Shown here one piece after another: positions 1 to 56,399 of a DNA stretch of 64,000 nucleotides (positions within the stretch are counted from its first letter, which is position 1; each line of letters starts with the position of its first letter). Where the stretch lies: contig JANYDC010000027.1 of assembly GCA_025359965.1 (NCBI GenBank), forward strand, positions 15 to 64,014. Direction: 5' to 3'. Position numbers and translations under genes: made by a program. Under the pieces are notes generated by a model. It ran no database searches, was not told the origin of the DNA, and was given only the letters and a program-made list of their open reading frames with translations. This DNA is from Pedosphaera sp. Lineage in GTDB: Bacteria; Verrucomicrobiota; Verrucomicrobiia; Limisphaerales; SXQI01.

Positions 1-2073
1 GTGAAGATCGTGGGGGCGGGAATGCATCAAACCACGCTTCAACTAGTTGGCGTCGAGCAGAAATATGATTCAAATTTGATGCCCAAAACAACATCCACCC
101 CCATCATTGCCCAAGCTTTTTCGACCCTTGTTGACGACGTGGAGATCTCGGATCTGACACTGGACTGCAACGGCCACCGGCAGGGGGTGTTCCAGTATGG
201 GCGGATTGTTCAACCCACGGTGATGGTTCATGGGATTTTCCTTTCCGGCAGCAACCTCAGTTTCCGCCGGGTGCGCGTGATCAATTGGGGCACCTTTTCT
301 CCCCGGAATGGTTTGGAGTGTTTTCCCATGGCCGCTGGCGCATCGCCCTACAATAGCTCTCACCCCGTTTTTCAGAACGGATTGATTGAGGATTGCATTG
401 TCGAACAACCCTGCCGCAATCAAGGCCGCGAGAGCACATGCATTGTACTGGGGGGCGGATTGGAGGATTCCGACAGCCGAAAACGGGTCTATTTCAAAAA
501 CGCGCGGGTGCGGAACAATTACGTCAACGGGGAACTGGTTAACCCCACGTATCCGGTCCTCACCGCCAAATCCGGCATCTTCAATTACTCTTATCGCGGC
601 GCGGGCAATCTGTGGACCAACCTTGCCCTGCCTAATACTGCCGTCATCACCAATGATTTTGAATCAGTGGGGCGTTTGGCCAGCACCACTCTGCGACAGT
701 CCGGCGGCACCGTGACCAACCGGCATACCTACACCTACAACGTGGCCGGCCAACGCACCGTCATGGCCCGGACCGATGCCAGCACCGTAACCTACTCCTA
801 TGACAACATCGGCGAGGTAAGCAAAGCCCTTGGCAGCGGCGGGGTTTCCACGGAGAATCTGGGGTACGGATATGACGCGGCCTTTAACCTCTCCAAAAAA
901 ACCAACGGTTCGGTGTCCACCTTCTCGGTGGACAGCAGAAACCAACTGACCAGCGATGGCACCTATCCCTACGCCTACGACGCCAACGGCAACCTGACCA
1001 ACAAAAACACCGGCTACTGGGTTTACAACTACGACGCAGAGAACCGTCTCGTCACCGTCCAAAACGCGGTCTATTACAAAACCACCTTTCAATACGACGG
1101 CAAAAGCCGGTTGAGAAAAAGAGTGGAATGGACCGGCTGGAACGGCAGTTATTTCGCTTCCAGCAACGCAGTCAACTACCTGTACGACGGAATGCGCGTC
1201 ATTCAAGAGAGGGATGACAGCAACACTCCGCTCGTTTCCTACACCCGTGGACTGGACCTGAGCGGGAGTATCGAAGGCGCAGGAGGCATCGGCGGATTAT
1301 TGGCCCGCAGCCACTCCTACTCCGCCGGAAACTGGAACACCCACAGCTTCTACCACGCCGACGGCGGTGGCAACGTCACCATGCTGCTGAACAGCAGCCA
1401 GTCCATGGTGGCCATGTACAAGTACGACCCCTACGGCAACACCCTGACCAGCAGCGGCACACTAGCCAGCGCCAACACCTACCGCTTCAGCAGCAAGGAA
1501 ATCCACGCCAACAGCGGCATGTACTACTACGGCTACCGCTTCTATGACCCGTCTTCACAACGGTGGCTGAATCGGGATCCAATTGAGGAAAAGGGAGGGA
1601 TCAACTTGTATGATTTTTGTGCCAATAATCCATGCAATAAGGTGGATTATCTTGGCCAATGCGGCTCGGACTGCGAGTTTGCTTGTGCGAAATACAAGCC
1701 GGGAAGCCCTGGTGGCTTCGATAAAGACACCGAAGGTGCAATAGTCTGTTGCGATGGTAAACCTATTACCTGTGTCTACAAAACTTCTCCAAACTCAAAA
1801 GCAAACGACATTTTGAAAAAATGTATTTCAAAGCATGAAAACTCTCACATAGATCAAAGTGAGCCATGTCCGCCCGATGGCATTGCAAAAGGAGGTAAAG
1901 CGAAAAATAAGAATAAAATGGCATCCGATGAGTGCAACGCTTGGAGAATTTCATTAGATTGTTACACCAAGTCTATTGGGGATTGTGGTGGCGATAAGGC
2001 CTGCGAAGACGCCGTATGGGCTGCGATCTATGACGCATTAAACACTTTGGAGAACATGAAATGCCCAAAATGA
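1..2073 (+). CDS. RHS/YD-repeat polymorphic toxin (5-prime truncated by window edge) with Cys-rich C-terminal toxin tip
   Basis: ORF open from base 1. Multiple YD motifs (YDANGNLT, YDAENRLV, YQYDGKSRL, YKYDPYGNTL). RHS repeat-associated core signature YRFSSKEI...YYYGYRFYDPSSQRWLNRDPIEEKGGINLYDFCANNPCNKVD. Followed by an unrelated 137-aa Cys-rich tail. Confidence 0.85.
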   Translation: MKIVGAGMHQTTLQLVGVEQKYDSNLMPKTTSTPIIAQAFSTLVDDVEISDLTLDCNGHRQGVFQYGRIVQPTVMVHGIFLSGSNLSFRRVRVINWGTFSPRNGLECFPMAAGASPYNSSHPVFQNGLIEDCIVEQPCRNQGRESTCIVLGGGLEDSDSRKRVYFKNARVRNNYVNGELVNPTYPVLTAKSGIFNYSYRGAGNLWTNLALPNTAVITNDFESVGRLASTTLRQSGGTVTNRHTYTYNVAGQRTVMARTDASTVTYSYDNIGEVSKALGSGGVSTENLGYGYDAAFNLSKKTNGSVSTFSVDSRNQLTSDGTYPYAYDANGNLTNKNTGYWVYNYDAENRLVTVQNAVYYKTTFQYDGKSRLRKRVEWTGWNGSYFASSNAVNYLYDGMRVIQERDDSNTPLVSYTRGLDLSGSIEGAGGIGGLLARSHSYSAGNWNTHSFYHADGGGNVTMLLNSSQSMVAMYKYDPYGNTLTSSGTLASANTYRFSSKEIHANSGMYYYGYRFYDPSSQRWLNRDPIEEKGGINLYDFCANNPCNKVDYLGQCGSDCEFACAKYKPGSPGGFDKDTEGAIVCCDGKPITCVYKTSPNSKANDILKKCISKHENSHIDQSEPCPPDGIAKGGKAKNKNKMASDECNAWRISLDCYTKSIGDCGGDKACEDAVWAAIYDALNTLENMKCPK
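1660..2070 (+). other. Variable C-terminal toxin module of the RHS protein (about 137 aa, 16 Cys, HENSH = HExxH motif around nt 1834-1848). Lower GC than the upstream repeat region
   Basis: Begins immediately after the core-domain end ...NKVDYLGQ. Contains CxxxC and CC pairs and KHENSHIDQSEPC. The DNA here is visibly A/T-richer (runs such as aaaacttctccaaactcaaaagcaaacgacattttgaaaaaatg). Confidence 0.6.
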
Positions 2074-2666
2074 AAACTCAGATTGCGAGTGTCGGCATGT
2101 TCTTTTTGTCGGCTGCCGTACTAGTCGCCCAGAATCAATTCCCATTGGGCCCCACCTCTGCCACTAATTTAATTTTTGTCTGGCAAGATCGGAGCCCAAC
2201 CTTCGGCGTGCGTCGGGCATTGGAGGTGTCTTTGGAAGGTCAGGCGACGATTTTCGTTTCCAACCTTGTCTTCAAGACGACAAAAATTCCTGCCGCGACT
2301 TTCACGAGCCTGACAAACCAGTTAACAGGATTACTGTTGAGAGCAAATGGGTATACCAACAGTTCTTTAGGGATGAACATGTTCGATGTCGGTTGCGACC
2401 AAGTCAGAGCTGCGGTCAATGGACTTAGCTTGGAACTCGAGTCTGTACACCCGCACCTTACAGATACCCCCGGCGAAATGTGGATGGAAGGCGGTGAGAA
2501 AGTGCGGAAAAAAGGGGAGTCCAAAGCAAAAGCACTTGAACAATCCTCTAGAGAATACCAGCAATTTCGCAAGCTCTGGAATGATCTGGAGGTGATCATG
2601 AACAAGCATGGAGTCCCGGCACCAGGGAGAAAATGGGAAGCCCCGCTCGACGAGGAAAACCCTTGA
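2061..2666 (+). CDS. Secreted small protein, putative cognate immunity protein of the RHS toxin
   Basis: ATG overlaps the toxin stop by 13 nt. N-terminus MPKMKTQIASVGMFFLSAAVLVAQNQ is a signal peptide. Position directly 3-prime of a polymorphic toxin tip. No recognisable family. Competing antisense ORFs 2240-2671 and 2367-2609 judged to be shadows. Confidence 0.5.
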   Translation: MPKMKTQIASVGMFFLSAAVLVAQNQFPLGPTSATNLIFVWQDRSPTFGVRRALEVSLEGQATIFVSNLVFKTTKIPAATFTSLTNQLTGLLLRANGYTNSSLGMNMFDVGCDQVRAAVNGLSLELESVHPHLTDTPGEMWMEGGEKVRKKGESKAKALEQSSREYQQFRKLWNDLEVIMNKHGVPAPGRKWEAPLDEENP

Positions 2667-8966: not shown

Positions 8967-9179
8967 TCAAATGGAAGACACACTCAACCAGTTTGCAAAC
9001 AGCACTACCGAGTTGACTTGTATCGTTCTACGACATATTGTTCAGCCGTACTTGTGGAAGTCAAGCGTCCAAATCTGCTTCCACTCACTCAATATCGTCA
9101 TTCATGATCTGGAAAATATTCCTGCTAAAATCGTTAATCGCCGCCCTTTCGGGTTGGGCGATTTTGAATTTGCTCTGAT

Positions 9180-9566
9180 ATGAAAAGCTTCGCCTACCTG
9201 CGCGACAGGCTCTTCCTCTTTGGGTGCGCGGTGTATGCCATTAATCGCTGGCTCGTGAAACCGCACTTTTCCGATGGATTTTTTCACTCCTACTTTAACG
9301 ACCTTTGGCTGATCCCCTGCGCATTGCCGATTGTCCTCTGGTTGCATCGCGAACTGGGCTTGCGAATGGACGATGATTTTCCGCGAGTCGCCGAAATAGT
9401 GTCTCATCTTATTTTCTGGTCTGTATTATTCGAGTGGATCGGACCCAAATGGGTTTCACATACCACGTCCGACCCACTCGATGTGCTGGCTTATGGCGCA
9501 GGCGCGATGGCAGCGGGGCTCTGGTGGCGTCGCGAGCAGTGGGCGAACCGGTTTTCCCGACCATGA
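9180..9566 (+). CDS. Small polytopic membrane protein (possibly DUF2809/VanZ-like)
   Basis: 128 aa with 3-4 hydrophobic segments. Divergent from marR. Family assignment from weak motif memory only. Confidence 0.45.
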   Translation: MKSFAYLRDRLFLFGCAVYAINRWLVKPHFSDGFFHSYFNDLWLIPCALPIVLWLHRELGLRMDDDFPRVAEIVSHLIFWSVLFEWIGPKWVSHTTSDPLDVLAYGAGAMAAGLWWRREQWANRFSRP

Positions 9567-10027
9567 GCTTCGACAGACTCGCCCGCCATTATCGATGGAT
9601 GGAGTGGCTTCTGGCCGGTGAAAAACTGCAACGGTGCCGGACAGCGTTCCTGACCGTGATCCCGTCCCCCGGCAACATCCTTCTATTGGGTGAGGGAAAT
9701 GGAAGATTCCTCACAGTGTGCCGCGAACGGTTCCCCAACGCTCAAATCACCTGTGTGGACGCAAGTTCGAGGATGTTAGACCAGGCTCGGAGACGCACGA
9801 AGTTGGCAGGACTAAACCACGATGCAATCACGTTTGCTCATGCTGATATCCTGTCGTGGAAACCTTCAGCGGCGGACTCCTATGATCTGGTCGTCACGAA
9901 TTTTTTTCTCGACTGCTTTCCAGCCAGCCAACTCGAAACAATCATTTCCAAAGTAGGCTGTCTGGCATCGAACAAGGCAAGTTGGCTCGTGGCCGATTTT
10001 CAAGTGGCTTCAAAAGGACCGGAGTGA
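9563..10027 (+). CDS. Class I SAM-dependent methyltransferase
   Basis: LLLGEGNGRFL glycine-rich SAM motif I. Acidic motif II VDAS. ATG overlaps the previous stop. Confidence 0.7.
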   Translation: MSFDRLARHYRWMEWLLAGEKLQRCRTAFLTVIPSPGNILLLGEGNGRFLTVCRERFPNAQITCVDASSRMLDQARRRTKLAGLNHDAITFAHADILSWKPSAADSYDLVVTNFFLDCFPASQLETIISKVGCLASNKASWLVADFQVASKGPE

Positions 10028-10244
10028 GCGCGAAGCAAGGTGATTCTTTGGATGATGTACACGTTTTTCTGTAGAGCAACCCAGCTTCCTGCTCGTCAAC
10101 TGACTCAGCCGGATCAGTTCCTGCAAGCAGCCGGTTTTAACCTGGTCCAAAAAGTTCAGTCTGAGTGGGGATTATTGGGCAGCAATTGGTGGAAGCGGAC
10201 CTACGAGCAAATCCAATCACGTTGACCATTTCCACAGCCTCGAA

Positions 10245-11678
10245 TCAGGTTTTGGATGGAATCCTGACTCTAAAACAGGAGCCGGAACCCAGGGTGCTGG
10301 ATGCCTGAATGGCGCCTCCGTGAGCCTCAACAATTGCCTTGCTTATGGCAAGCCCAAGCCCGGTGCCTCCAGTCGCGCCAGTGCGCGATGCGTCCGCACG
10401 ATAGAAGCGCTCAAAAATACGAGCCAAATCCGCCTCGGCGATTCCCGGGCCGTTATCTGTAACAGTAATGACGGCGAATGACGGCTCAGTGAAAGACGCC
10501 ACGCGGACCTCACCGCCACTTCTATTATGAACAATGGCATTGGTGAGCAGATTGGCCATGACCTGCGCCAAACGGTCAGTATCCGCCATGCACGGAGCAG
10601 CTTTAAGATCAACGATAAGACTCACGCCCCGTTCGTCAGCAAAGGGGCGTATGAGATCAGCTGATTCCCGCGTCAAATCGGCAAGATCGCAAGGCTGCTG
10701 CCTAAAGGACTCCTGGCCCGCATCAAACCGGGCCAACTGCAACAATGATTCAATCAGCCGGCGCATCCGCTGTGCGGCGCGCTGACATGTCTCCGCCGTC
10801 GCCTTGTAATCGGCCGCCGTGCGCTCGCGCGCGAGTGTGGTCTGGGTCTGGGATAAGATCACAGTGACTGGAGTGCGAAGCTCATGAGAGGCATCAGAGG
10901 TGAAGCGGGCCTGCTGGGTAAACGCGGCGTCAAGACGAGCGAACGTGGAATTGAGCACCGCCGCCAACTGTCCAAACTCGCTGTCAGTTTCAGTGGCGCT
11001 GATCCGGTGGGAAAGGTCTCCGCCGGCGATTTTGGCAGCTGCCTCGGTAATTTCATGGATCGGGCGAATTGCGCGCGTGGCAAGCCACCAACCCCCGGCC
11101 AAACCCAGCGTCAAAACCACACCACCAAACAGCAACATCCAGAGCGCAAGCTGGCGCAAACGGCCGATCTCCGGGGCAACTGAACGCCCCACCAGAACAC
11201 ATTCTCCTGGCGGGGTGAACTCATAAAGCTCACGCGAATCGCCCTGCATTCGAAATTGGGATCGGGGCATGCCTCGAAGAAATGGCGGGGGTTGAAACAC
11301 CACTGCAGGCCCATTTTCGGATCGCTTTGACACTACGCCGCCAGGCTCCCAAACGATGAAATAAAACCCATCTTCATTGGCTTCAAAGAGATCGGAAACG
11401 TTTTCCCGGGGCCGCCTGCCTCCAGGCGGAGGAAAACCCCCTTCATCCGGAGGGGGATCCATGCGCAAACCAGGTCGCCCCTCAGGCCTTCCTCCACGAG
11501 GAGGGGGACGAAGCGATTCCGACAGCAGCCTCAAACGATGTTGCAGCCCCTGGTCAACTCGTCTCATTTCATCGCCTTGCTGAAGCCGGTGGGCCGTGAA
11601 GCCAAACCCCGCCAGCACCAGCACCAGAATAAGTCCGTGCCAGATCTGCAACCGCCAACGTATGGAATGAAAGATCAT
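10245..11678 (-). CDS. Sensor histidine kinase (2 TM, periplasmic loop, HAMP, HisKA, HATPase_c)
   Basis: H-box SHELRTPVT, N/G boxes (NLLTNAIVH, TGLGLAI). Periplasmic loop is Pro/Gly/Arg-rich (PPPRGGRPEGRPGLRMDPPPDEGGFPPPGGRRP). Confidence 0.9.
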   Translation of the reverse strand: MIFHSIRWRLQIWHGLILVLVLAGFGFTAHRLQQGDEMRRVDQGLQHRLRLLSESLRPPPRGGRPEGRPGLRMDPPPDEGGFPPPGGRRPRENVSDLFEANEDGFYFIVWEPGGVVSKRSENGPAVVFQPPPFLRGMPRSQFRMQGDSRELYEFTPPGECVLVGRSVAPEIGRLRQLALWMLLFGGVVLTLGLAGGWWLATRAIRPIHEITEAAAKIAGGDLSHRISATETDSEFGQLAAVLNSTFARLDAAFTQQARFTSDASHELRTPVTVILSQTQTTLARERTAADYKATAETCQRAAQRMRRLIESLLQLARFDAGQESFRQQPCDLADLTRESADLIRPFADERGVSLIVDLKAAPCMADTDRLAQVMANLLTNAIVHNRSGGEVRVASFTEPSFAVITVTDNGPGIAEADLARIFERFYRADASRTGATGGTGLGLAISKAIVEAHGGAIQASSTLGSGSCFRVRIPSKT

Positions 11679-11680
11679 GC

Positions 11681-12334
11681 TCAGGTCTCTATGGAATAAC
11701 CGTGGCCGCGCCGGGTGATGATGAATTCATGGCCCAGCTTTTTGCGAATGTTGGAGACGTGAACATCCAACAGATTGGAAAGACTGCTGTCATCCTCATC
11801 AAACAAATGCTCGTAAAGAGCCGTGCGCGTGACCACCTCACCCCGATGCAAGGCCAGAAACGCCACCAACCCATATTCCCGCGCGGTGAGTTCAACTACT
11901 GCGCCTGCACGCGTGACAAGCCGGGCGGCCGTGTCGATGCTGACATCGCCGATATCGAGCGTGTTGCAGGTTTGTCCGGCACTACGGCGAATCAGGGCCC
12001 GCAGACGGGCCAGCAATTCATCGAGATCAAATGGTTTGACGACATAATCATCCGCGCCTGTATCAAGACCGCGCACGCGATCCATGGTCCGATCCCGGGC
12101 CGTCAACATGAGCACGGGCGTCTTCTTTGTTTTGCGCAGCCGGGCGAGAAGTTGCCAGCCGTCTAGTTTGGGAAGCATGACGTCGAGGACAATGGCGTCA
12201 TATTCCCAGCTCTCGGCCTTGTGCAGCCCCTCGTCCCCATCAGCGGCAGTGTCGACCGCGTAGCTCTCCTCGCGCAGGGCCTGTGCCAGGCTGCGGAGCA
12301 AATCGGGTTCATCTTCGACAACCAAAATTCTCAT
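11681..12334 (-). CDS. OmpR/PhoB family response regulator
   Basis: MRILVVEDEPDLL receiver start, D in LDVMLP, winged-helix C-terminus ...RRGHGYSI. Stop abuts the kinase start. Confidence 0.9.
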   Translation of the reverse strand: MRILVVEDEPDLLRSLAQALREESYAVDTAADGDEGLHKAESWEYDAIVLDVMLPKLDGWQLLARLRKTKKTPVLMLTARDRTMDRVRGLDTGADDYVVKPFDLDELLARLRALIRRSAGQTCNTLDIGDVSIDTAARLVTRAGAVVELTAREYGLVAFLALHRGEVVTRTALYEHLFDEDDSSLSNLLDVHVSNIRKKLGHEFIITRRGHGYSIET

Positions 12335-12636: not shown

Positions 12637-13179
12637 ATGATGAAAATGAAACTCGTCCTCCTTACACTGGCACTCGGGATTTCCGCGAGCCTTCTCACCG
12701 CCCAAGACGCCCCAGCGCGCCCTGATGGACAACGCCCGCCTCCCCCTCGCGAAGGCGGACCCGGTCGCCAGGACCGTGAACATCGAGGGCCTGGCGGACC
12801 TGAAGAGGATCGTCGCGGCCCGGGTGGCCATGATGGCCCCGGAGGCCCGGAAGGTGATCGCCGAGGACCGCGTCCCCCGATGCCTCTCCTCGTCGCACTG
12901 GACTTGAATCACGACGGAGTCATTGACGCTGAGGAGATCGCCAAAGCCAGCGAGTCCTTGAAGAAATTGGACAAAAACGGCGACGGCAAACTAACCCCGG
13001 ATGAAATACATCCGCCCCGTCCCGGCGGACGAGGAGGACCCGGCGGCCCCGGACCTGATGGTCGCCCTGAAGGTCCTGGTCCACGGCATGACGATCGACC
13101 ACGCCATGAAGGTGGCCCCCGAGGGGACGATGCACCGCGCGGGGAAGGACGCCCACCCCGCCCTGCTCCAGAAAACTAA
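12637..13179 (+). CDS. Secreted EF-hand calcium-binding protein with Pro/Gly/Arg-rich low-complexity flanks
   Basis: MMKMKLVLLTLALGISASLLTAQD signal peptide. Two EF loops DLNHDGVIDAEE and DKNGDGKLTPDE. Flanks are GPGGP/RRGP repeats. Confidence 0.65.
   Translation: MMKMKLVLLTLALGISASLLTAQDAPARPDGQRPPPPREGGPGRQDREHRGPGGPEEDRRGPGGHDGPGGPEGDRRGPRPPMPLLVALDLNHDGVIDAEEIAKASESLKKLDKNGDGKLTPDEIHPPRPGGRGGPGGPGPDGRPEGPGPRHDDRPRHEGGPRGDDAPRGEGRPPRPAPEN
12700..13170 (+). repeat. GC-rich low-complexity coding repeats (ggaccc/ggcggccc/cgaggacc codon runs)
   Basis: Repeated GGPGGP / DRRGPGG / GPRP coding units visible in the DNA. Generates many overlapping shadow ORFs on both strands. Confidence 0.6.
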
Positions 13180-13393
13180 GCATCCCGAGTCGAAAGGCGC
13201 GTCAGCCATGACGCTGCCTTCCGGGAAGCTAATGATGCGCCGAACCACTCGCGCCCACGGGTGGTTTCGGGGCATTTTTGCCCCCCCCGGAGCACGCCAA
13301 ACAAACAGCATTTGGCACCCAGCCTGCTGCAACAATGAGGTTGCCAAAATAGCGAAAAAGCGAAGAATTAAACTGTACCGAGATTGCAAACCA

Positions 13394-16300
13394 ATGATTG
13401 AACGCCTGAATGATCCGCTTCGTCCGAGGGCGGGATGGACTACGACTCCGAACTTACGACTCTGGATGCAGTTGACCTTGTTAGGCGTGCTTTTGCTGGT
13501 TGGGCTTGGAGGAAGTGCTCTTGGACATCCAATCATTTCTGAATTTCTCGCCAGCAATACCCGAGGATTGCTTGATGAAGACCGGCAAACCAGCGATTGG
13601 ATTGAATTGTATAATCCCACCTTCGCATCGATCGACCTAGGCAACTATGCACTGACTGATACCGCCGGCGATTTGCTTAAATGGAAATTCCCATCAACAA
13701 ACCTGGCGTCAGGTCAGTTTATGGTGGTCTTTGCCTCAGGCAAGAACCGCCGGATAACGGGGCAGCCTCTCCATACTAGCTTCAGTTTGGCTGCCACGGG
13801 GGAGTATCTTGCGCTGACCACAATTGACGAAACGACCATCGTTTCTGAGTTTGGGCCGGTTTACCCCGCGCAATCACCGGATATATCCTATGGATGGATT
13901 GGCAGCACCAACGAGCTGGCCACATTTTTTAATCCCCCCACACCTGGCCAACCCAATCCAATGGTCCCCTTTGAGACTGCGGCGAACGTAGGGTTCTCCC
14001 TGCCAAGTGGGGGGTACGCCACCAATACCACAGTGATTCTTTCCAGCTCAGAAACCAATGGGTTCATTCGATTCACGATCAATGGTACAGAACCCAAGGC
14101 CACCTCGCCGGTATATGTCAACCCCTTGCAAATCTTCAAAACCACCGTGGTCAGGGCCCGCGTTTTTGCGCCCGACAAGGCTCCAGGCCCACTCCGCTCG
14201 GAAACCTACCACTTGATTGAACCCGGGCTGGCGTCGTTCTCATCGAACCTGCCCCTGCTCATCCTCAGCACTTTCGGCGCTGGAGTTAGCGAATCAACCA
14301 AAACAATCACATCTTTCACATTGGCCGAACCGCGCAAAGATACGGGTCGAACAACCCTTACAAGCCCGGCAACAGCGGAAGGACGTGGAGTGATCAAAGT
14401 GCGTGGCAGTAGTTCATTGCAGTTCCCAAAACACAGCCTCGCCTTTGAGATTCAGGATGAGTTCGGCGCCGACCGTAAAATGTCACTTCTCGGCCTTCCA
14501 GAGGAATCCGATTGGGTTCTCTATGCTCCTTACACAGAAAAGACCCTCATTCGTGACGTTCTGTCGTACGAGCTTTTCGGAAAGATGGGCCACTACAGTG
14601 TGCGAACCCGTTATGTGGAGGTGTTTCTGGACACGAGCGGGAACAAGGTGGCAACCAGCGATTACGCGGGAGTTTATATTTTGGTCGAGAAGATCAAGCG
14701 AGGCAAGGACCGGGTGGACATCCAACAATTATTACCAAGTCACTCGACGCCACCCGAGGTTACGGGTGGATACATCTTCAAGAAGGACCGATTAGACCCG
14801 GGCGACAGCGGATTTTTCACGCCGCAACAACAACTGGCGTTTGTTGAACCCAAGGAGCAGGAGATCACCAAGCCTCAAAGATCATACCTGAGCCAGTTTT
14901 TTGGCAACTTTGAAACGGCTTTGTATGGCGCCAATTTCGCGAACCCCACCAATGGATGGTTAGCATACATAGACGCCTCGTCGTTCATCGACAACCACTT
15001 GCTCGTGGAGGGCACCAAAAACATCGATGGATACCGACTTAGCTCGTACATGTTTAAGGACCGTGACCAAAAACTGAAAATGGGGCCTGCGTGGGATTTC
15101 AACTTGGTCATGGGAAATGCCAATTACCTCAATGGGTGGTTGACCAATGGCTGGTATTACGACGATGTGGGGGACGCGGAGTACCCATGGTATCGACGGC
15201 TCTTTCAGGATCCCAACTTCAAACAAATGTGGATTGATCGATGGGCGGAGTTGCGGGACGGCCCATGGTCGACCACTTCGCTGCTTCGCTCGGTTGATGA
15301 AAAGGCCGCCTACCTCAACGAGGCTCAAGCCAGAAACTATCGCACCTGGCCCATTCTCGGCACCTACGTCTGGCCCAATTGGTACATCGGAAACACCTAT
15401 GCCGAGGAGGTTGACTGGATGAAACAATGGATTGTGGGGAGAATGGCGTGGATGGACGGACAAAACGCGCGACGACCGAAACTGAGCAGAGCCACTGGTC
15501 CTGTGGCCAGTGGTGATTCCGTGCTGCTCTCCGGACCGAGCACCCCTATTTACTTCACCACCGATGGCTCTGATCCGAGGCTGCCTGGGGGAGCCATATC
15601 GCTGAAAGCAAAGATTTATTCCGTAAAATTGACTATTACAAACAATGTGAGGATCGTGGCGCGGGCCAAAACATTAAGTGGATGGAGCGCGCCCCTCGCT
15701 GCCTCATACATTGTTAATCCGTCCCCCCTGATCATCACTGAGATCATGTATCACCCCGCGGTGGCGGACACCGGTTTCATCGAGCTAATGAACACTGGCA
15801 AGGTCCCTCTGCCGTTGGTGGGTTTCAAAATTTCGGGGGGTATTGATTTTGATTTCAACACCAGCGCGATCACCCAAATCCTTCCTGGCGCACGAGTGGT
15901 CGTTGTGGCGAACCTTGCAGCTTTCAATGGCTTTTATGGCAACACCAACAACGTTGCCGGTGTTTACAAGGGCAGCCTTTCCAATTCAAAAGCCCAACTG
16001 ATCCTAACAGGTCCGATGGGTGAACCAATCCTTGATTTCAGCTATGAAGACAATTGGTGCCCCGCCACCGACGGCAAAGGGTTTTCCCTCGTGATCCGCG
16101 ATGAGCAAGGCGACCCGGCCTTGTGGAATCTAAGTAGGGGATGGCGTGCCAGTGGGCTTCCAAACGGCACGCCAGCGGGCACTGATCCTGGCTCCTCTAT
16201 ACCAGAGATCTGGATTAACGAAATTCTCACTCGCAGTACGCCCCCATTCTCGGACACGATCGAGATCTACAATCCGGGCAACTCCACGGCTGATATCAGC

Positions 16301-17815
16301 AACTGGATTCTCTCCGACGAAACCGCCACCACCAACGGGTACGTTTTTCCAGCAGACAGCAAAATAGCCCCGAATGAGTATCTCATCGTGACTGGTGACC
16401 AACTTTCTTCGACCACTGCGACCCGAACCGGGTTCTCCCTCCGTGCCGCAGGCGAAACCGTCTATCTCTGGTCCGCCGACACCAACCATATTCTCACCGG
16501 TTACGCGAACCGTTTTAACTGCCAGGATGCTTTTGAGAATGTTTCCTTTGGTCGGCAAACCAGGTCAGATGGAAAACTGGAACACCCGCCTCAAAAACGC
16601 CCGACGTTTGGGCGCGAAAACTTCGTTCCAAAAGTGGGACCCCTTGTCATCACCGAAATTTTCGCCTCACCCAACGTCCCGGGTCATTCCTTCATCGAAC
16701 TCAAGAACGTCAGCCTAGTGCCCCTGACTCTTGCTCAACCGGGTGATCCCGCGAAGACATGGGAAATCGCAGGGATAGACTTCCAGTTTCCAACCGCCGC
16801 CTTGATACCAGCGGATGGTTTTGCCCTGATCGTAAAAACCAACCCCGCCGGTTTCAGGACGCGCTTTCAAGTTCCTGCCGAAGTCCCCATCTTCGGCCCG
16901 TTTCTTGGCGAATTGAACGCCTTTGGAGAGGAGCTATCTATCCTCCAGCCTCAAGTCCATACAAACTCTCTGGGCGTCACGCAAATATTGAAACCCAAAT
17001 CGGATGAGGTTGCATTTCTTGACAGCAGCGCATGGCCGGGACTTCTTGCCAATGGCGATGTAAATATTGAAAGAGTGTTTTTGACTGGCTACGGCAAAGA
17101 CCCAGCCAACTGGCGTGAACCACCGGGAGGCATTTCTCCTGGCAGATACAATGTCAATGCCGCCAAACTCCCCCCGGCTCTGGTGATCAATTCACCGAAC
17201 CCAGTTTACGATGGAGTGCGAAGCCTCCTTGCTGGATGGGCCTCGCGCGACACCGCTTTGGACGGTGGACCTGTCACGGTTGAATGGAGCCTGACTTCAG
17301 GTCCGGCACCGCTCGAATTTGAAAGCCGCCAAAGTGAATCGACTGTCGCGCGGTTCCGGATCCCAGGAATCTACGACGTCAGATTCTCCGCCTCAGATGG
17401 CTTCACCAACACATCGATTAGCAAAACCATTTCCGTTCTGCCTAATTCGGAGTACCAGCAATGGGCGACATCCATTTTTAACCCAAGCCAGCTGGCTGAT
17501 CCCGTCATCAGCGGCATGACGGCCGATCCCGATTCCGATGGGGCCACCAACGCCGACGAATGGCTCGCCGGAACCGACCCCCTTGATGGCAAGAATTTCC
17601 TTGGGCTCAATTTAGTCTCCGCCTCAGCTAATGGGATTGCTCTTCAATTCCAGGGTCAAACAGGACTCTGGTATGCGGTGCAAAAGCGCGGATTGGTAAA
17701 AGATTCAGAATGGGAAACACTTGCGACTGTGGCAGGCTCCGCATCCGTACAAATTACGGTTCCCGTTCAAGATGCGAGTAGTTATTTTCGAGTCTCCACA
17801 CTCCCGGCCCAATAG
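13394..17815 (+). CDS. Giant secreted protein: four lamin-tail domains, CotH kinase-like domain, PKD-like domain
   Basis: Lamin-tail motifs ISEFLASN...DWIELYNPT, IITEIMYHP...GFIELMNTG, IWINEILT...DTIEIYNPG, VITEIFASP...SFIELKNVS. CotH-like core LPLLILSTFG...VIKVRGSSSLQFPKHSLAFEI...DWVLYAPYTEKTLIRDVLSYELFGKMG. PKD-like TVEWSLTSGPAPLEF. Signal-like MQLTLLGVLLLVGLGGSALG. Start ambiguous (13208, 13394 or 13466, all in frame). Confidence 0.8.
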   Translation: MIERLNDPLRPRAGWTTTPNLRLWMQLTLLGVLLLVGLGGSALGHPIISEFLASNTRGLLDEDRQTSDWIELYNPTFASIDLGNYALTDTAGDLLKWKFPSTNLASGQFMVVFASGKNRRITGQPLHTSFSLAATGEYLALTTIDETTIVSEFGPVYPAQSPDISYGWIGSTNELATFFNPPTPGQPNPMVPFETAANVGFSLPSGGYATNTTVILSSSETNGFIRFTINGTEPKATSPVYVNPLQIFKTTVVRARVFAPDKAPGPLRSETYHLIEPGLASFSSNLPLLILSTFGAGVSESTKTITSFTLAEPRKDTGRTTLTSPATAEGRGVIKVRGSSSLQFPKHSLAFEIQDEFGADRKMSLLGLPEESDWVLYAPYTEKTLIRDVLSYELFGKMGHYSVRTRYVEVFLDTSGNKVATSDYAGVYILVEKIKRGKDRVDIQQLLPSHSTPPEVTGGYIFKKDRLDPGDSGFFTPQQQLAFVEPKEQEITKPQRSYLSQFFGNFETALYGANFANPTNGWLAYIDASSFIDNHLLVEGTKNIDGYRLSSYMFKDRDQKLKMGPAWDFNLVMGNANYLNGWLTNGWYYDDVGDAEYPWYRRLFQDPNFKQMWIDRWAELRDGPWSTTSLLRSVDEKAAYLNEAQARNYRTWPILGTYVWPNWYIGNTYAEEVDWMKQWIVGRMAWMDGQNARRPKLSRATGPVASGDSVLLSGPSTPIYFTTDGSDPRLPGGAISLKAKIYSVKLTITNNVRIVARAKTLSGWSAPLAASYIVNPSPLIITEIMYHPAVADTGFIELMNTGKVPLPLVGFKISGGIDFDFNTSAITQILPGARVVVVANLAAFNGFYGNTNNVAGVYKGSLSNSKAQLILTGPMGEPILDFSYEDNWCPATDGKGFSLVIRDEQGDPALWNLSRGWRASGLPNGTPAGTDPGSSIPEIWINEILTRSTPPFSDTIEIYNPGNSTADISNWILSDETATTNGYVFPADSKIAPNEYLIVTGDQLSSTTATRTGFSLRAAGETVYLWSADTNHILTGYANRFNCQDAFENVSFGRQTRSDGKLEHPPQKRPTFGRENFVPKVGPLVITEIFASPNVPGHSFIELKNVSLVPLTLAQPGDPAKTWEIAGIDFQFPTAALIPADGFALIVKTNPAGFRTRFQVPAEVPIFGPFLGELNAFGEELSILQPQVHTNSLGVTQILKPKSDEVAFLDSSAWPGLLANGDVNIERVFLTGYGKDPANWREPPGGISPGRYNVNAAKLPPALVINSPNPVYDGVRSLLAGWASRDTALDGGPVTVEWSLTSGPAPLEFESRQSESTVARFRIPGIYDVRFSASDGFTNTSISKTISVLPNSEYQQWATSIFNPSQLADPVISGMTADPDSDGATNADEWLAGTDPLDGKNFLGLNLVSASANGIALQFQGQTGLWYAVQKRGLVKDSEWETLATVAGSASVQITVPVQDASSYFRVSTLPAQ

Positions 17816-28688: not shown

Positions 28689-29045
28689 TTAGTTTCCCGA
28701 CAAAGTGTGGCCCTCGATAGTACAGGTGGCCGAAGTGCCTATGGCACCGAAGTCGTAAATGCCGCCAGCGGGGCAGTCGGGGCTTCGTTTCATGTAGAGC
28801 TGAGGTCCAATCAAATCGCTTGTTGAAGCAATATCCCCCGTGGTTTTGCTTTTTTCCATTCCCCAAATCTGTTTGGAAGCTTCTATCTCAGAAAGGTTTG
28901 TGATACAAATCTTCTTACGCGCTTCGTAGCGGGTCTTGTTGTAAGCAGGCACCGCAAGGGAGAGGATTACACCTAGGATTGCGATGACAATCATCAACTC
29001 CAACAAGGTGAAAGCTCTGGGATTTTTGACTGTACGGTTTTTCAC
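28689..29045 (-). CDS. Prepilin-like protein, variant with Ala at the -1 cleavage position
   Basis: NPRAFTLLELMIVIAILG. CITNLSEIEASKQIW. Paralog of the two preceding genes. Confidence 0.8.
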   Translation of the reverse strand: MKNRTVKNPRAFTLLELMIVIAILGVILSLAVPAYNKTRYEARKKICITNLSEIEASKQIWGMEKSKTTGDIASTSDLIGPQLYMKRSPDCPAGGIYDFGAIGTSATCTIEGHTLSGN

Positions 29046-29139
29046 TTATTCTCTGAGAAGCAAGAAAGAGGCCTGCGATCCAGGGTGGTATAAGGAGGAT
29101 TAACCCATCGAGCTACCCCTCAACACAAAGTATTATCCT

Positions 29140-30270
29140 TCAATGTTTTAAGCCAAGCACCAAGATCACCAAATCAATTACAAAAAGCACAACGATGGTG
29201 ATTTCCAAAATCAACATCATCCGGTTGTTCTGGTCGCCTGCCAGCAACTGATAAAGGTCGTTGAGGGTTCTAAGTTTCTCGTCGACATTTTTGCGCCATT
29301 CGGCCAAATGAAAACGTCCGGCCATGATGGAATAAATCCGCGCTAAGTGCCAGTCACCGAAGAACTTGGTGATGTTTGACATCTCGTCATTCATTCGAGC
29401 TAAATCAATGCGTAAATCGCGCAGGTCGGCGAGAACTTCCGTCTTACGCCGAAGCGCGCGGTTTCGTAAATCACGATAAGCACTCTGGAGTGCGTCATCG
29501 AGCAGTCGATCATAGGCTTCCAACTCGGCGAGCTGTAGATTCGCAAGTTCCATCACGTAAAGAACCTCTTCAAAATCACTTGGCGCATCGATGAGTAAAG
29601 CCGCGTCCCAGTCCATCACAACAATGTCATCCCCGTAATACGACAGCCAGTGCTGGGTCGATTCCTCCGCTTCCTGATCGGATAGTTCGGAACTATCATC
29701 CTCTTGAGTGAGGAGGCCAGCCACTTCCCGCCGGTGGTTCTTGAGCCAAGCCTCGGCATTAAGATTTTCTCCAGTGCTGCCCTGCAACGGGCCATTAAGG
29801 CAGAACACTGTAAATGCTTCTTCATCAATTATTTGAGCAATCGGCCTAACCAGATGGAGAACCAATTCATCACGAATATTTAGGGCCATCTGCCGCACTT
29901 CATCCTGCAAAGATCCATGGGCAAAATGAAAATCATGGTAGCCGACCAATTCAGAAATGGATTCCGTCTCAAATGGCAAGCGAACGGTAATGGTGATGGC
30001 ACCCACCGTGAGCAATTTCACCGTTGTTTCAACTCTCACTAATCCCGCAGGACCCATTCGTTCCGTAGGAGGCAACTTCACCATTCGCGGCCGGTAAAAA
30101 AACAGGTGGCGAGGACTCCGTTTGCTTTGGTCCAGAGCGTATTCGGCCATCGGTTGGCCCAGCAAAGTGCTGATGGCAGCTGTATCCTTGAGTTCGTAGG
30201 CCAGATCAAAGGCGAACATATAAGCCACATAACCACGATAGCGGCTGGGGTCAGAATTGTTCGCACTCAT
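29140..30270 (-). CDS. Hypothetical C-terminally membrane-anchored protein (possibly RMD1/DUF155-like)
   Basis: About 376 aa, acidic stretch QEDDSSELSDQEAEES, single C-terminal TM ILEITIVVLFVIDLVILVLGL. Family call is weak. Confidence 0.55.
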   Translation of the reverse strand: MSANNSDPSRYRGYVAYMFAFDLAYELKDTAAISTLLGQPMAEYALDQSKRSPRHLFFYRPRMVKLPPTERMGPAGLVRVETTVKLLTVGAITITVRLPFETESISELVGYHDFHFAHGSLQDEVRQMALNIRDELVLHLVRPIAQIIDEEAFTVFCLNGPLQGSTGENLNAEAWLKNHRREVAGLLTQEDDSSELSDQEAEESTQHWLSYYGDDIVVMDWDAALLIDAPSDFEEVLYVMELANLQLAELEAYDRLLDDALQSAYRDLRNRALRRKTEVLADLRDLRIDLARMNDEMSNITKFFGDWHLARIYSIMAGRFHLAEWRKNVDEKLRTLNDLYQLLAGDQNNRMMLILEITIVVLFVIDLVILVLGLKH

Positions 30271-38330: not shown

Positions 38331-38909
38331 TTATGCTTTGGCAGCGCGACGACGGAAGCCAGTCGCAACCAGACCTGCGAGAACACCCGCTGCGGCCAAT
38401 GTGCCGACTTCAGGCACGGGTTGACAATCCACGAATCGCGTGTCTTGATCAAGAATGAGATTCACACCGCTGGGTCCACTAAAATCCTCAAAAAAACGGA
38501 CTTCGAAGGAATGAATTCCCGCTGTCAAAAAGGCGGCGCCAGGCACGGTATTGGGGCCATGGCCTCCTCCATTATCGATGATCTGTACGTTGTCGATGAA
38601 AAGACTTGAGCCGTCGTCAGAATCCAATTGAAAGAGGTGAACATCAGTGCTACCCACTTCGATACAGCCAGTTAAAACAGCACCAAAGGATTGCAGACCG
38701 AAAGGATGCCAAGCGTAGCTGGTTGGGTTGACAAAATCGGCATCAGGGTTGGTGAAACTCCCCGCCAAATCGCTGAATGGAGTACCGTCGTATGTTCCGA
38801 AGCTTCTGTAGACATCCACCTTGACAGGACCAGCCGCCTGAACGTTGACCATGCCCACGACCGCCAGAGCAGCAGCTCCAAGCCATTTACCGATGAGACT
38901 TTTCTTCAT
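38331..38909 (-). CDS. PEP-CTERM sorting-domain protein with PA14-like domain
   Basis: Signal peptide MKKSLIGKWLGAAALAVVGMVNVQAAG. C-terminus VPEVGTLAAAGVLAGLVATGFRRRAAKA = PEP motif + TM + Arg cluster. Confidence 0.8.
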   Translation of the reverse strand: MKKSLIGKWLGAAALAVVGMVNVQAAGPVKVDVYRSFGTYDGTPFSDLAGSFTNPDADFVNPTSYAWHPFGLQSFGAVLTGCIEVGSTDVHLFQLDSDDGSSLFIDNVQIIDNGGGHGPNTVPGAAFLTAGIHSFEVRFFEDFSGPSGVNLILDQDTRFVDCQPVPEVGTLAAAGVLAGLVATGFRRRAAKA

Positions 38910-39618
38910 AGTTTTGTGGTTATTTTTTCCGACATTAAACCCACTTAAGAGCAGGAGAGAACTTTCAACGCCACGCATGGCATTGAACTGACCTATTCAC
39001 AGTGGGCGCACTTTTCATTACCAGAACACCCTGCCAAGCGCAATCATTTTGTGTTATTTTAATACTATATAAGGCCTTAATAGAACCATCACAAAAGCGG
39101 CAATTATTACCGCCTGCAAGTTATGTCTTCCAAATGCTTTTGCTGCAATTGATTGCGACAAATTCAAATTCCCACACGAGATTCGCCCTTCGTTTTATGC
39201 GCCGGCAAAGCCAGCGAAACAAACTTCTCACAGTGTTTACGCCCACCGCTTATTGCACTGAAAAATCATGCACTCATTTTAATCAACGCGAAATTGCCGA
39301 AGAGGAAGAAATTCCGAAGGACTATTCAGCAGCCGTTGTAGCTGAGTTCCCTCCAAAAAAACCAGCATTATGACGGCCACTGAAGTCGGACACCAAAATG
39401 ATGCCCAAGTAGAAGGGGAATAGGAGTGTTTCAAAGTGACGTGTGACATTGATTTCACTCCGCTTGGGGCGCTTGGGCATCAAGACGCGTGAACATCATC
39501 ATCAGCTCAGCCCGGCTTTTAGTGAGTTTCTTAAAAGGCGGGCCAACGGAAATTTGCTGACTTACCGTTGCCCATTCAATGCCACCGCCTTACTGTGGGG
39601 CAGTTCAAAGAATCAACT
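38910..39618. other. About 700-bp A/T-rich non-coding region
   Basis: No convincing ORF (39002-39373 ORF is low-complexity, no SD). Strongly lower GC than the flanks. Confidence 0.4.
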
Positions 39619-54937: not shown

Positions 54938-55891
54938 CTAGTGCTTGTGCTCCCCGGCGTGGCCGTGAGCGGGTTCGTGAGCGTGCTCCTCATCATGGGA
55001 GCAAATGAGCAGAGTGAAGACGGCGGTCAGCAGCATGAACACCAAGGCCTGAACCATACCGACCAGCAACTCCATGAAATAGAAAGGAATGGGAATCAAC
55101 CAACCAAAGCCAGGAACGAGCGTGGCCATTGTTTCCAACATGTTCTCACCAGCGAATATATTTCCATACAAACGGAAGCTCAAGGAAACAGGGCGGAAGG
55201 CAATCGAAACCACTTCCAACACACCGACAGCGAGGAACACGACAATCATGCCCCATTTCATGATGCCGGTAGTATCCCCTTTAGGCCCAAAAATATGCAT
55301 AACGAAACCGCCAGGGCCGTTTGCTTGCAGCGCCCAGACAATCCAGCAGGCGAAGAAAACCAACGACATTGCCAACGTCATGTTCAGATCAGCATTAGCA
55401 CCACGCAGAAGCGATGTTGTGAAATGATGGAAATGGCCGTTCTCATCAGGATGCCCCCAACCTATTGAGCCCACCCCTGGTATCAAACCAGCCCAGTTTG
55501 TGGCCAAAACCAGAATGAAAAGCGTGGCAAAAAACCAAAATGTTTTGCGAGCCAGATCTGCCCCCATAATTCCACCCAGAAAATCGTCAAGCCCTTCGAC
55601 AAGCCATTCCCAGAAATTCTGCGCGCCTTGAGGCACCATGCGAACGTTGCGCATGGCCAATTGTGCACCAATGATCAGGAGAATTGCCACCGCCCATGTG
55701 ATGACCATGGAATTAGTGAGGACAAGCGGTCCAAACTTGGCCACAGGAGCTGCGTAGAGCGGAATACCTTCCTTTTCGGCATGCTCCGCATGGCCAGCAG
55801 GTGCAGCCACAGCATGACCTTCAGCCGCAAAGGCCAATGGCGCGAAGGCGATTCCCAAAACTCCAACCAAAAATAGCAAAAATGTCCGCAT
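54938..55891 (-). CDS. atpB: F0F1 ATP synthase subunit a with N-terminal signal-like extension and His-rich termini
   Basis: Core a-subunit motifs (LSFRLYGNIFAGE). N-term MRTFLLFLVGVLGIAFAPLAFAAEGHAVAAPAGHAEHAEKEG. C-term HDEEHAHEPAHGHAGEHKH. Confidence 0.85.
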   Translation of the reverse strand: MRTFLLFLVGVLGIAFAPLAFAAEGHAVAAPAGHAEHAEKEGIPLYAAPVAKFGPLVLTNSMVITWAVAILLIIGAQLAMRNVRMVPQGAQNFWEWLVEGLDDFLGGIMGADLARKTFWFFATLFILVLATNWAGLIPGVGSIGWGHPDENGHFHHFTTSLLRGANADLNMTLAMSLVFFACWIVWALQANGPGGFVMHIFGPKGDTTGIMKWGMIVVFLAVGVLEVVSIAFRPVSLSFRLYGNIFAGENMLETMATLVPGFGWLIPIPFYFMELLVGMVQALVFMLLTAVFTLLICSHDEEHAHEPAHGHAGEHKH

Positions 55892-56399
55892 GAAACTGTG
55901 ACGCTTGTTTGGCCGTTCAGAGAAAACAATTCCCCTCGGCTAAACATGTGTGTTCCGAAATTCGATAGCAAAATGACAGATCGTGAAATTTTTCACAAGC
56001 AGTTTTTGCAGGATTTTTTACACCGAGATGAATAAGCACTGGAAATGGATGGTTCGCAGACATTTAAGTAAGATGAATGATGCGCGTTGCAGCTAAGGCA
56101 CTTGGTCGTCTCCCCGCCGGAAAGTTTCCATCAGCGAAACCCTTTTCACCTTGCAAGCGAAATGCTTCGATCGAATGAGAAAACCTACGACACATGATGT
56201 GTTTACGGACCATCAACCACTGGCACGGTTTGTTACCAATGTGAGTAATGTCGTGCCACACATGGTAAATGTATGACCACATTGAGGCAGCGGGAAATGC
56301 AAATTTTGGCGTATGCTTGTGCTTTTTGAACCAGAGAACTCTTGATGCGAGCAGCGGCGAATGGATCAGGGAATTATCTTGGGGCCGCTGATGAAAATC

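Follow-up and report, generated by a model that had tools for sequence, protein, structure and literature searches.

A cysteine-rich HExxH tip behind an RHS core in Pedosphaera sp. belongs to a widespread family of candidate envelope-targeting polymorphic toxins with unrelated secreted or lipoprotein partners

The contig JANYDC010000027.1 of Pedosphaera sp. (Verrucomicrobiota; GenBank assembly GCA_025359965.1) was analysed over a stretch of 64,000 nucleotides (nt; positions 15 to 64,014 of the forward strand), which is referred to as the window in the following. At its left edge the window carries an RHS gene encoding a cysteine-rich C-terminal tail, the toxin tip, and, overlapping the end of this gene, the gene of a putative secreted immunity protein. 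The tail is a member of a widespread, mainly metagenomic toxin-tip family without a match in Pfam, NCBIfam or the PDB. The features of the locus, in which A1 denotes a 59-sequence alignment of the tip family and residues are given as amino acids (aa), are the following:

1-2073, plus strand: toxin open reading frame (ORF), partial at its 5' end, one uninterrupted frame from base 1 up to its TGA (2071-2073)
1-1659, plus strand: carrier part of the toxin ORF, according to the open frame, Pfam/NCBIfam matches and tblastn, with a beta-helix-like part (aa 1 to about 190), YD/RHS repeats (aa about 190 to 475) and the RHS-associated core (aa 475-552)
1423-1659, plus strand: RHS repeat-associated core with DYLGQ at its end (TIGR03696, E 6.6e-23)
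1660-2073, plus strand: toxin tip, aa 554-690 and the stop codon, a Cys-rich HExxH...E domain with 251 relatives, alignment A1 and an AlphaFold model
1834-1848, plus strand: HENSH (H612, E613, H616), the presumed metal-binding/catalytic motif, aa 612-616 at the C-terminal end of helix 1
1930-1932, plus strand: E644, candidate third metal ligand, invariant in A1 (as E79) and two turns into helix 2
1569-2609, no strand: low-GC cassette from a maximum-likelihood two-breakpoint segmentation, GC 0.463 inside versus 0.565 outside
2061-2666, plus strand: putative immunity protein of 201 aa, predicted to be secreted, overlapping the toxin stop, with signal-peptide features and within the low-GC block

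The toxin frame runs over 2070 nt without interruption, and its 5' start lies beyond the left window edge. The core was recognised in the NCBIfam scan by TIGR03696 (aa 475-552, 81 bits at a cutoff of 32.5), and the repeats before it by TIGR01643 in the same scan (aa 344-372, 26.6 bits, cutoff 15.8) and by PF05593 in the Pfam scan (aa 326-356, E 1.5e-5, 25.7 bits, cutoff 22). The core ends with DYLGQ (aa 549-553, nt 1645-1659) and the tail begins at aa 554, in agreement with a preliminary description of the sequence that had placed a 137-aa tail behind an RHS core. With repeats, core, variable tip and adjacent partner all present, the gene is a member of the RHS polymorphic toxins.

The tail is exactly 137 aa long and contains the HENSH motif as first described, while the 16 Cys residues reported for it were recounted as 13 (15 if C540 and C545 at the core end are included). 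No hydrophobic or amphipathic segment suggestive of pore formation was found in the tip sequence. Searches of Pfam and NCBIfam revealed no tip family for the tail at E<=1, and neither the PDB sequences nor, by tblastn, plasmids gave a match. A word-index search of 5.8 billion proteins returned nothing for the tail and 6 unnamed matches only for the profile of A1. When 1.84 billion cluster representatives were scanned exhaustively with HMMER, 251 of them, each standing for a cluster at 50% identity, proved to be related to the tail at E<=1e-3; the best E was 9e-14, and identities were 30-40%. The earlier statement that neither the tail nor the downstream protein could be recognised as a named family thus holds for Pfam, NCBIfam and the PDB, but the tail is not without kin, having 251 metagenomic relatives. 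A second tip was not detected elsewhere in the 64-kb window.

The domain is C-terminal in nearly all of the 251 relatives, and 147 of the 150 best have kept the HExxH motif. Among these 150, a regular-expression search detected RHS-core-like sequence upstream of the domain in 68, and in many relatives, fragments as well as full proteins, the domain directly follows an RHS core. An explicit core with the tip is present in P0006, P0007, P0012, P0014, P0023, P0038, P0045, P0057, P0076, P0095 and P0114, of which P0038, P0045, P0076 and P0095 are RHS proteins of 1309-1908 aa. Non-RHS surface carriers exist as well, such as P0112 with Big_1, TSP3 and CarboxypepD_reg domains and the lipoprotein-like P0005. 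Full-length carriers begin with a Sec or lipoprotein signal peptide and are devoid of PAAR and VgrG domains. In the source records the relatives are named 'RHS repeat-associated protein' or 'hypothetical' only. The C-terminal position of the homologues, often just past RHS cores, and their occurrence in arrays of core, tip and small ORF bear out the initial assignment as a polymorphic-toxin tip.

Ten residues are invariant in A1 (C583, C591, C608, H612, E613, H616, C623, E644, C654 and C662) and six further ones are conserved to at least 90% (G579, C584, G586, C645, A647 and C668); all family-invariant residues are intact in the window copy. Of 125 members, 112 have a C-terminal Cys; 13 Cys is the most frequent count, and about 10-13 Cys are conserved in the family. 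The relevant Pfam and NCBIfam models are matched by none of the 59 members of A1, and its profile found nothing below E 0.17 among the PDB sequences. Pfam Dicty_spore_N was matched by 5 of the 59 members (best E 2e-4), which we assume to be due to the common Cys-rich composition.

The tail differs from the rest of the toxin ORF in its composition, with a GC content of 0.442 and 0.43 at third codon positions (GC3) compared to 0.552 and 0.71. It falls into the lowest 1% of all 414-nt windows across the 64 kb (mean 0.539, standard deviation 0.033), so that the A/T-richness noticed at first stood up to a windowed computation. The composition of the downstream ORF is intermediate (GC 0.50, GC3 0.55). 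The low-GC cassette spans the last approximately 30 core codons, the tip and nearly the whole downstream ORF; tip and downstream gene are a compositionally foreign cassette. A single low-GC block would be expected from a joint acquisition of tip and partner by recombination within the conserved core-coding sequence. Together with the occurrence of the same tip family behind different cores and in orphan arrays, the cassette agrees with the swapped tip that had been proposed. No promoter, terminator or flanking repeat was found at the cassette borders.

Further low-GC islands of the window (GC <=0.46 in 414-nt windows) are located at 28771-29455, 38731-39535 and 55801-56405. Part of the first is shared with the minus-strand ORF 28689-29045, which encodes 118 aa with a prepilin-type N-methylation motif; the second likewise overlaps with a PA14-domain ORF on the minus strand (38331-38978).

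Using A1 as alignment, AlphaFold modelled the tip with a pLDDT of 91.4 and a pTM of 0.84, compared to a pLDDT of 47 in a single-sequence run. The model comprises a beta-hairpin (aa 579-592) followed by a three-helix bundle, with a core of about 110-125 residues. H612 and E613 lie in the last turn of helix 1 (599-614) and H616 just past its end as defined by DSSP; a 20-residue loop with a short strand leads to helix 2 (637-662), in which E644 is located two turns in, and helix 3 comprises aa 666-685. An antiparallel arrangement of helices 1 and 2 would place H612, H616 and E644 at the same end of the bundle.

A structure search of the PDB with this model gave no significant fold match and no zincin among the matches listed, and the model does not show the zincin fold of mixed beta-sheet, backing helix and active-site helix. 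The listed matches were helical bundles rather than peptidases, the closest among them being the RGM N-terminal domain and MIT. HExxH in combination with a downstream Glu is the classic peptidase signature. In the model the motif would thus indicate a zincin-like metal site, while the fold comparison does not indicate a zincin. The zinc-metallopeptidase-type module that had been suggested is supported by the invariant HExxH and downstream Glu; a zincin fold or a significant match to a metallopeptidase family was not found in the libraries searched.

The same data bear on the possibility that the tip is no enzyme at all but a disulfide-rich binding or membrane-active module, comparable to bacteriocins or receptor-binding domains, in which the His and Glu residues hold a structural metal. 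The small size of the tip, its very high Cys content and the binding domains among its closest folds, namely MIT and the RGM N-terminal domain, which binds BMP, would be in line with such a role. Four invariant polar residues arranged as HExxH...E across sequences of 30-40% identity are nevertheless typical of a catalytic site, and the tip has no pore-suggestive amphipathic or hydrophobic segment. We therefore regard a non-enzymatic tip as very unlikely.

The resemblance to the RGM N-terminal domain (RGMA, RGMB, hemojuvelin) was followed further. The domain headed two independent searches, one by structure and one by sequence profile: it reached a Foldseek probability of 0.98 to the tip model, was the top match of the tip profile among the PDB sequences (E 0.17), and has the register C-x8-C-x7-C-xGD in common with the junction of helices 2 and 3 of the tip. 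In contrast to the tip it lacks the beta-hairpin, helix 1 with its HExxH and the conserved Glu. The alignment of both by hhalign is weak (P 0.011, probability 3.8%), and Pfam RGM_N was not among the matches of the 59 members. The resemblance may be a convergence of small disulfide-locked helical bundles. It is a long shot that the tip has a minimal metalloenzyme fold not derived from zincins and that the RGM N-terminal domain is an inactivated descendant of the toxin family. If true, RGM would join Wnt, teneurin and Hedgehog-HINT as metazoan signalling modules traced to bacterial polymorphic toxins.

Zincin-like tips are an established class among polymorphic toxins, comprising Tox-MPTase1-5, Tox-HopH1/M91 and the PVC-metallopeptidase/DUF4157 group with its HExxHxxQ-E signature (Zhang et al. 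2012, PMC3482391). Like these, the domain described here is a small C-terminal HExxH domain on RHS proteins with a Glu on the following helix; zincin-like tips are also known from Verrucomicrobia, and the HENSHIDQ of the window fits the HExxHxxQ of the PVC-metallopeptidase/DUF4157 group. Zhang et al. (PMC3482391) list no immunity protein for the Tox-MPTases, whereas the family of the window has lipoprotein or secreted partners. It also differs from the zincin-like tips in its approximately 10-13 conserved Cys and its model of a beta-hairpin and three helices without a zincin fold match. None of the 59 members matches the toxin-type metallopeptidase models in Pfam at E<=1, a negative result whose scope depends on which of the Tox-MPTase/HopH1/DUF4157-type families have Pfam models.

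The gene of the 201-aa protein overlaps the toxin stop by 13 nt and is preceded by GGAG 8 nt upstream of its ATG at 2061; an alternative ATG at 2070 would result in an ATGA overlap. The N-terminus has two Lys residues, a stretch (aa 8-24) that is the only hydrophobic one in the protein, and a potential cleavage site between LVA and QN after aa 23; a lipobox is absent. Judging from these features the N-terminus looks like a Sec signal peptide of roughly aa 1-23 (nt 2061-2129). Both the overlap with the toxin stop and the signal peptide, the latter as a prediction, were thus found as the preliminary description had them.

NCBI and Logan both have a record of an identical protein (P0001), and a 1.25-kb Logan contig (SRR23617308) is identical to the window over tip and partner. 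Nothing significant was found for the 201-aa ORF in Pfam, NCBIfam or the PDB. At the related locus L012, a 194-aa signal-peptide protein overlaps the tip stop by 4 nt and is collinear with the window ORF over aa 125-173 (BLASTP 40% identity, E 1e-6). The Smith-Waterman score of 79 was reached by none of 2000 shuffles (30.2 +/- 4.8, maximum 60). Since the tip of L012 is not especially close to that of the window, there is no sign of a subclade tied to the partner of about 200 aa. The 201-aa protein is probably the antidote, or immunity protein, of the tip.

In order to compare the partners of the tip family, 14 metagenome loci and 6 loci obtained by exact-protein look-up were read, 15 of which are informative on what follows the tip. 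The metagenome locus scan used a narrower profile (A2) and sampled the [IV]CC[GNA]GKKY subgroup only. In 11 of the 15 informative loci a small lipoprotein gene follows the tip at a distance of -28 to +11 nt:

L006, 4471-4767: small lipoprotein
L007, 1093-1536: small lipoprotein
L008, 708-998: small lipoprotein
L011, 397-660: small lipoprotein
L013, 1220-1645: small lipoprotein
L014, 6402-6695: small lipoprotein
L015, 922-1254: small lipoprotein
L017, 989-1285: small lipoprotein
L018 (identical to L019), 718-1005: small lipoprotein
L022, 2496-2840: small lipoprotein
L026, 2144-2473: small lipoprotein

These ORFs encode 87-155 aa, each with a lipobox and a common C-terminal pattern (alignment A3: …A..E…RGW…W.V.V…P..PGG…V.VS..G.V…PG), and in their layout a helix precedes about three strands. 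Their best Pfam matches, Imm-NTF2-2 (E 0.13) and DUF6488 (E 0.015), are both below cutoffs, and their profile found nothing in the PDB. Of the known immunity families Imm-NTF2-2, BamE/SmpA_OmlA and PepSY, none was significantly matched by these lipoproteins or by the 201-aa ORF. From their layout, a relationship to the BamE-like immunity lipoproteins that PMC12419801 describes for envelope-acting helical toxin tips is conceivable. The 201-aa ORF was also considered as a long form of the small lipoprotein, which was rejected with a hidden Markov model (HMM) score of only 1.7-4 bits, and no gene of the small-lipoprotein type is hidden elsewhere in the 64-kb window.

Wherever a partner of the tip is visible it is targeted to the envelope, and at least two unrelated partner families occur, of which the window carries the rarer one. 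The expectation that the downstream ORF would be kept beside homologous tips was borne out in part, by the partial homologue at L012, but not by the 11 of 15 loci with the unrelated lipoprotein. Action of the toxin outside the cytoplasm, as proposed from the signal peptide, fits the Sec-signal carriers, the lipoprotein partners of most tips and the approximately 10-13 conserved Cys.

Orphan modules of core, tip and partner are arranged in arrays at L008, L018, L020 and L026. At L020 the upstream RHS module of the array (3-1613) ends with a different tip containing LFHETVHSCG; behind it come a 177-aa multi-pass membrane protein (1604-2137) and, next, an orphan tip belonging to the present family. 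At L010 a 348-aa transposase-like ORF (1023-2069) lies 9 nt past the tip, in the place expected for the immunity gene.

The lipoprotein partners also bear on what the tip might cleave. With the same logic of toxin and immunity protein, the HExxH...E site on a non-zincin helical bundle could hydrolyse a non-peptide envelope substrate, for instance the head group of lipid II, of undecaprenyl carriers or of phospholipids. A mode of action of this kind has been proposed for the helical Lipocone tips. We keep this as the main rival explanation because the fold is not recognisably that of a zincin, the PDB search having given helical bundles instead of peptidases, and the Sec export of the carriers would suit it equally. 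HExxH with a Glu as peptidase signature speaks against it. The small membrane-anchored lipoproteins recall the BamE-like immunity proteins of tips targeting lipid head groups (PMC12419801), but a BamE match was not found for them in Pfam or the PDB. Moreover, the Lipocone core consists of four helices with a His in H2 and an Asp in H4 (PMC12419801) compared to the three helices with HExxH and Glu of the tip. Taken together, a non-peptide substrate of any of these kinds seems unlikely.

As far as the carrier is concerned, its best relatives in the genome-collection scan belong to Verrucomicrobiota metagenome-assembled genomes (32-36% identity). According to tblastn, aa 187-570 match the short RHS protein of L003 (670 aa), and aa 1-193 match RHS-free Verrucomicrobiota proteins in L002 and L004. 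In this N-terminal part (window 1-600, aa 1 to about 190) the identity to large RHS-free Verrucomicrobiota proteins, which are right-handed beta-helix-like in look, amounts to 32-35%; its counterparts are located at 9068-12154 and 13049-14686 of L002 and at 2702-3193 of L004. Judged by these similarities the carrier may be a chimera of a beta-helix and a short RHS protein.

The usual self-cleavage motif of RHS cores is DPxGL, of which the DYLGQ of the window appears to be a variant. Relatives have DYLGL (5 cases) or DALGQ (1 case) at the same position, and DFLGL and DVLGL were also encountered. Release and delivery of the window copy are uncertain because of the DYLGQ core end and the short, chimeric carrier.

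It was therefore considered whether the window copy is a dead or undeliverable remnant, that is, a recombinant of a beta-helix-like and a short RHS protein with an atypical cleavage motif, next to which the 201-aa ORF would merely encode an unrelated secreted protein. The match of aa 1-193 to non-RHS proteins, the mere 320 aa or so of YD repeats in view before the core and the DYLGQ motif would support such a remnant, as would a partner unlike the usual lipoprotein of the family and a protein database that returned the neighbour and not the toxin protein. On the other hand, the 2070-nt frame is unbroken with every invariant family residue present, similarly laid-out short RHS proteins occur in relatives (L003, 670 aa), and the D[YFV]LGL and DALGQ variants recur among the family. 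The 201-aa ORF is furthermore translationally coupled, has a cassette-like composition and a partial homologue at the same position of L012. Taking both sides into account, a remnant appears distinctly improbable.

The toxin protein itself was absent from the results of searching 5.8 billion proteins, yet the adjoining 201-aa protein is on an NCBI record of 102,907 bp. It may be that the source record leaves the toxin gene without annotation or marks it as a pseudogene.

On balance we consider it more likely than not that the tip represents a new family of polymorphic-toxin tips, namely a disulfide-stabilised metal-dependent envelope hydrolase accompanied by an envelope-located immunity protein. 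Envelope action, oxidative folding and periplasmic immunity are proposed because the carriers have Sec signals without PAAR or VgrG, the family has 10-13 conserved Cys and the partners are lipoproteins or secreted proteins. A metal-dependent hydrolase is proposed because of the invariant HExxH...E. A peptidase is, by analogy, the unproven default reading of this chemistry.

From the above we infer metal binding, hydrolase or peptidase chemistry, disulfides, target and immunity function of the 201-aa protein as follows. The carrier would be exported by Sec, and its tip would fold oxidatively outside the cytoplasm and be held together by some five to six disulfides. H612, H616 and E644 would bind a metal ion, presumably zinc, with E613 activating a water molecule, and the tip would hydrolyse an essential substrate of the cell envelope in neighbouring bacteria. 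As a first guess the bond attacked may be a peptide bond in a periplasmic protein, a lipoprotein or a peptidoglycan peptide. The 201-aa secreted protein, presumably co-transcribed and translationally coupled, would bind and block the tip in the envelope of the producer. Tip and immunity gene would move jointly as a swappable cassette, which may have entered the RHS core by recombination at its conserved end.

Several findings weigh against the proposed envelope hydrolase with its immunity protein. The metallopeptidase HMMs of Pfam and NCBIfam match none of the 59 members save one, with PhageMetallopep at E 0.15, and the model lacks the backing helix and the larger sheet of canonical zincins. 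As regards the partner, the word-index search of 5.8 billion proteins returned only the identical protein of the 201-aa ORF, the ORF has a single partial relative (L012), and it shows no kinship to the lipoprotein found beside most tips of the family. At the core end DYLGQ replaces DPxGL, the visible part of the carrier is short and of chimeric make-up, and the 5' end of the gene lies beyond the window. Together with the short repeats and the non-RHS-like N-terminal part, these features make delivery of the window copy uncertain.

There are precedents for the proposed envelope hydrolase, since HExxH effectors of the VgrG2b C-ter/Tpe1-Tpi1 type act in the periplasm and have periplasmic or lipoprotein immunity proteins (PMC6899460), and RHS toxins bearing small zincin-like tips have been described (PMC3482391). 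Like VgrG2b C-ter and Tpe1-Tpi1 (Wood et al. 2019, PMC6899460), the locus would combine an HExxH effector with an adjoining gene for an immunity protein with a signal peptide or a lipoprotein. The VgrG2b/Tpe1 effectors are toxic in the periplasm, with an involvement of envelope disulfide formation (PMC6899460). They are delivered by the type VI secretion system on the VgrG spike, whereas the family of the window uses Sec-exported RHS or surface carriers without PAAR or VgrG. The PDB holds a solved structure of the VgrG2b C-terminal domain, and neither sequence nor fold of the tip matched PDB entries.

The Lipocone tips (Min-Wnt, CapCone, prok-SAA and TelC) have BamE-like lipoprotein immunity proteins (Burroughs et al. 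2025, PMC12419801), which evolve rapidly (PMC12419801). They share with the window tip the small soluble helical domain, extracytoplasmic action, which is predicted for the latter, and membrane-anchored or lipoprotein partners, but are set apart by description through their four helices with H2-His and H4-Asp instead of three helices with HExxH...E. Membership of the tip in the curated metallopeptidase toxin families, the VgrG2b/Tpe1 family or the Lipocone superfamily could not be demonstrated.

Downstream of the toxin and its partner, the window encodes a Gfo/Idh/MocA oxidoreductase with a twin-arginine translocation (TAT) signal and a protein of the 3-keto-disaccharide hydrolase type. A 1605-aa ORF (12995-17812, plus strand) combines a CotH kinase, three lamin-tail domains and a chitobiase/hexosaminidase C-terminal domain. 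No secretion-system gene and no further RHS core was identified in the 64-kb window.

What is new are the tip domain family and at least two partner families, none of which was matched in the libraries searched, whereas the kind of system is already known; the general picture of RHS toxins, tip swapping and toxin-immunity pairs is unchanged. Polymorphic toxins rank among the main sources from which new antibacterial activities and unusually targeted enzymes are obtained. With 251 clusters, about 110-125 residues and a confidently predicted fold without a significant solved relative, the tip family is a compact and tractable candidate for a new envelope-targeting activity. It may also offer a test of HExxH...E chemistry on a non-zincin scaffold and a candidate for studying how different immunity proteins are recruited by one toxin family.

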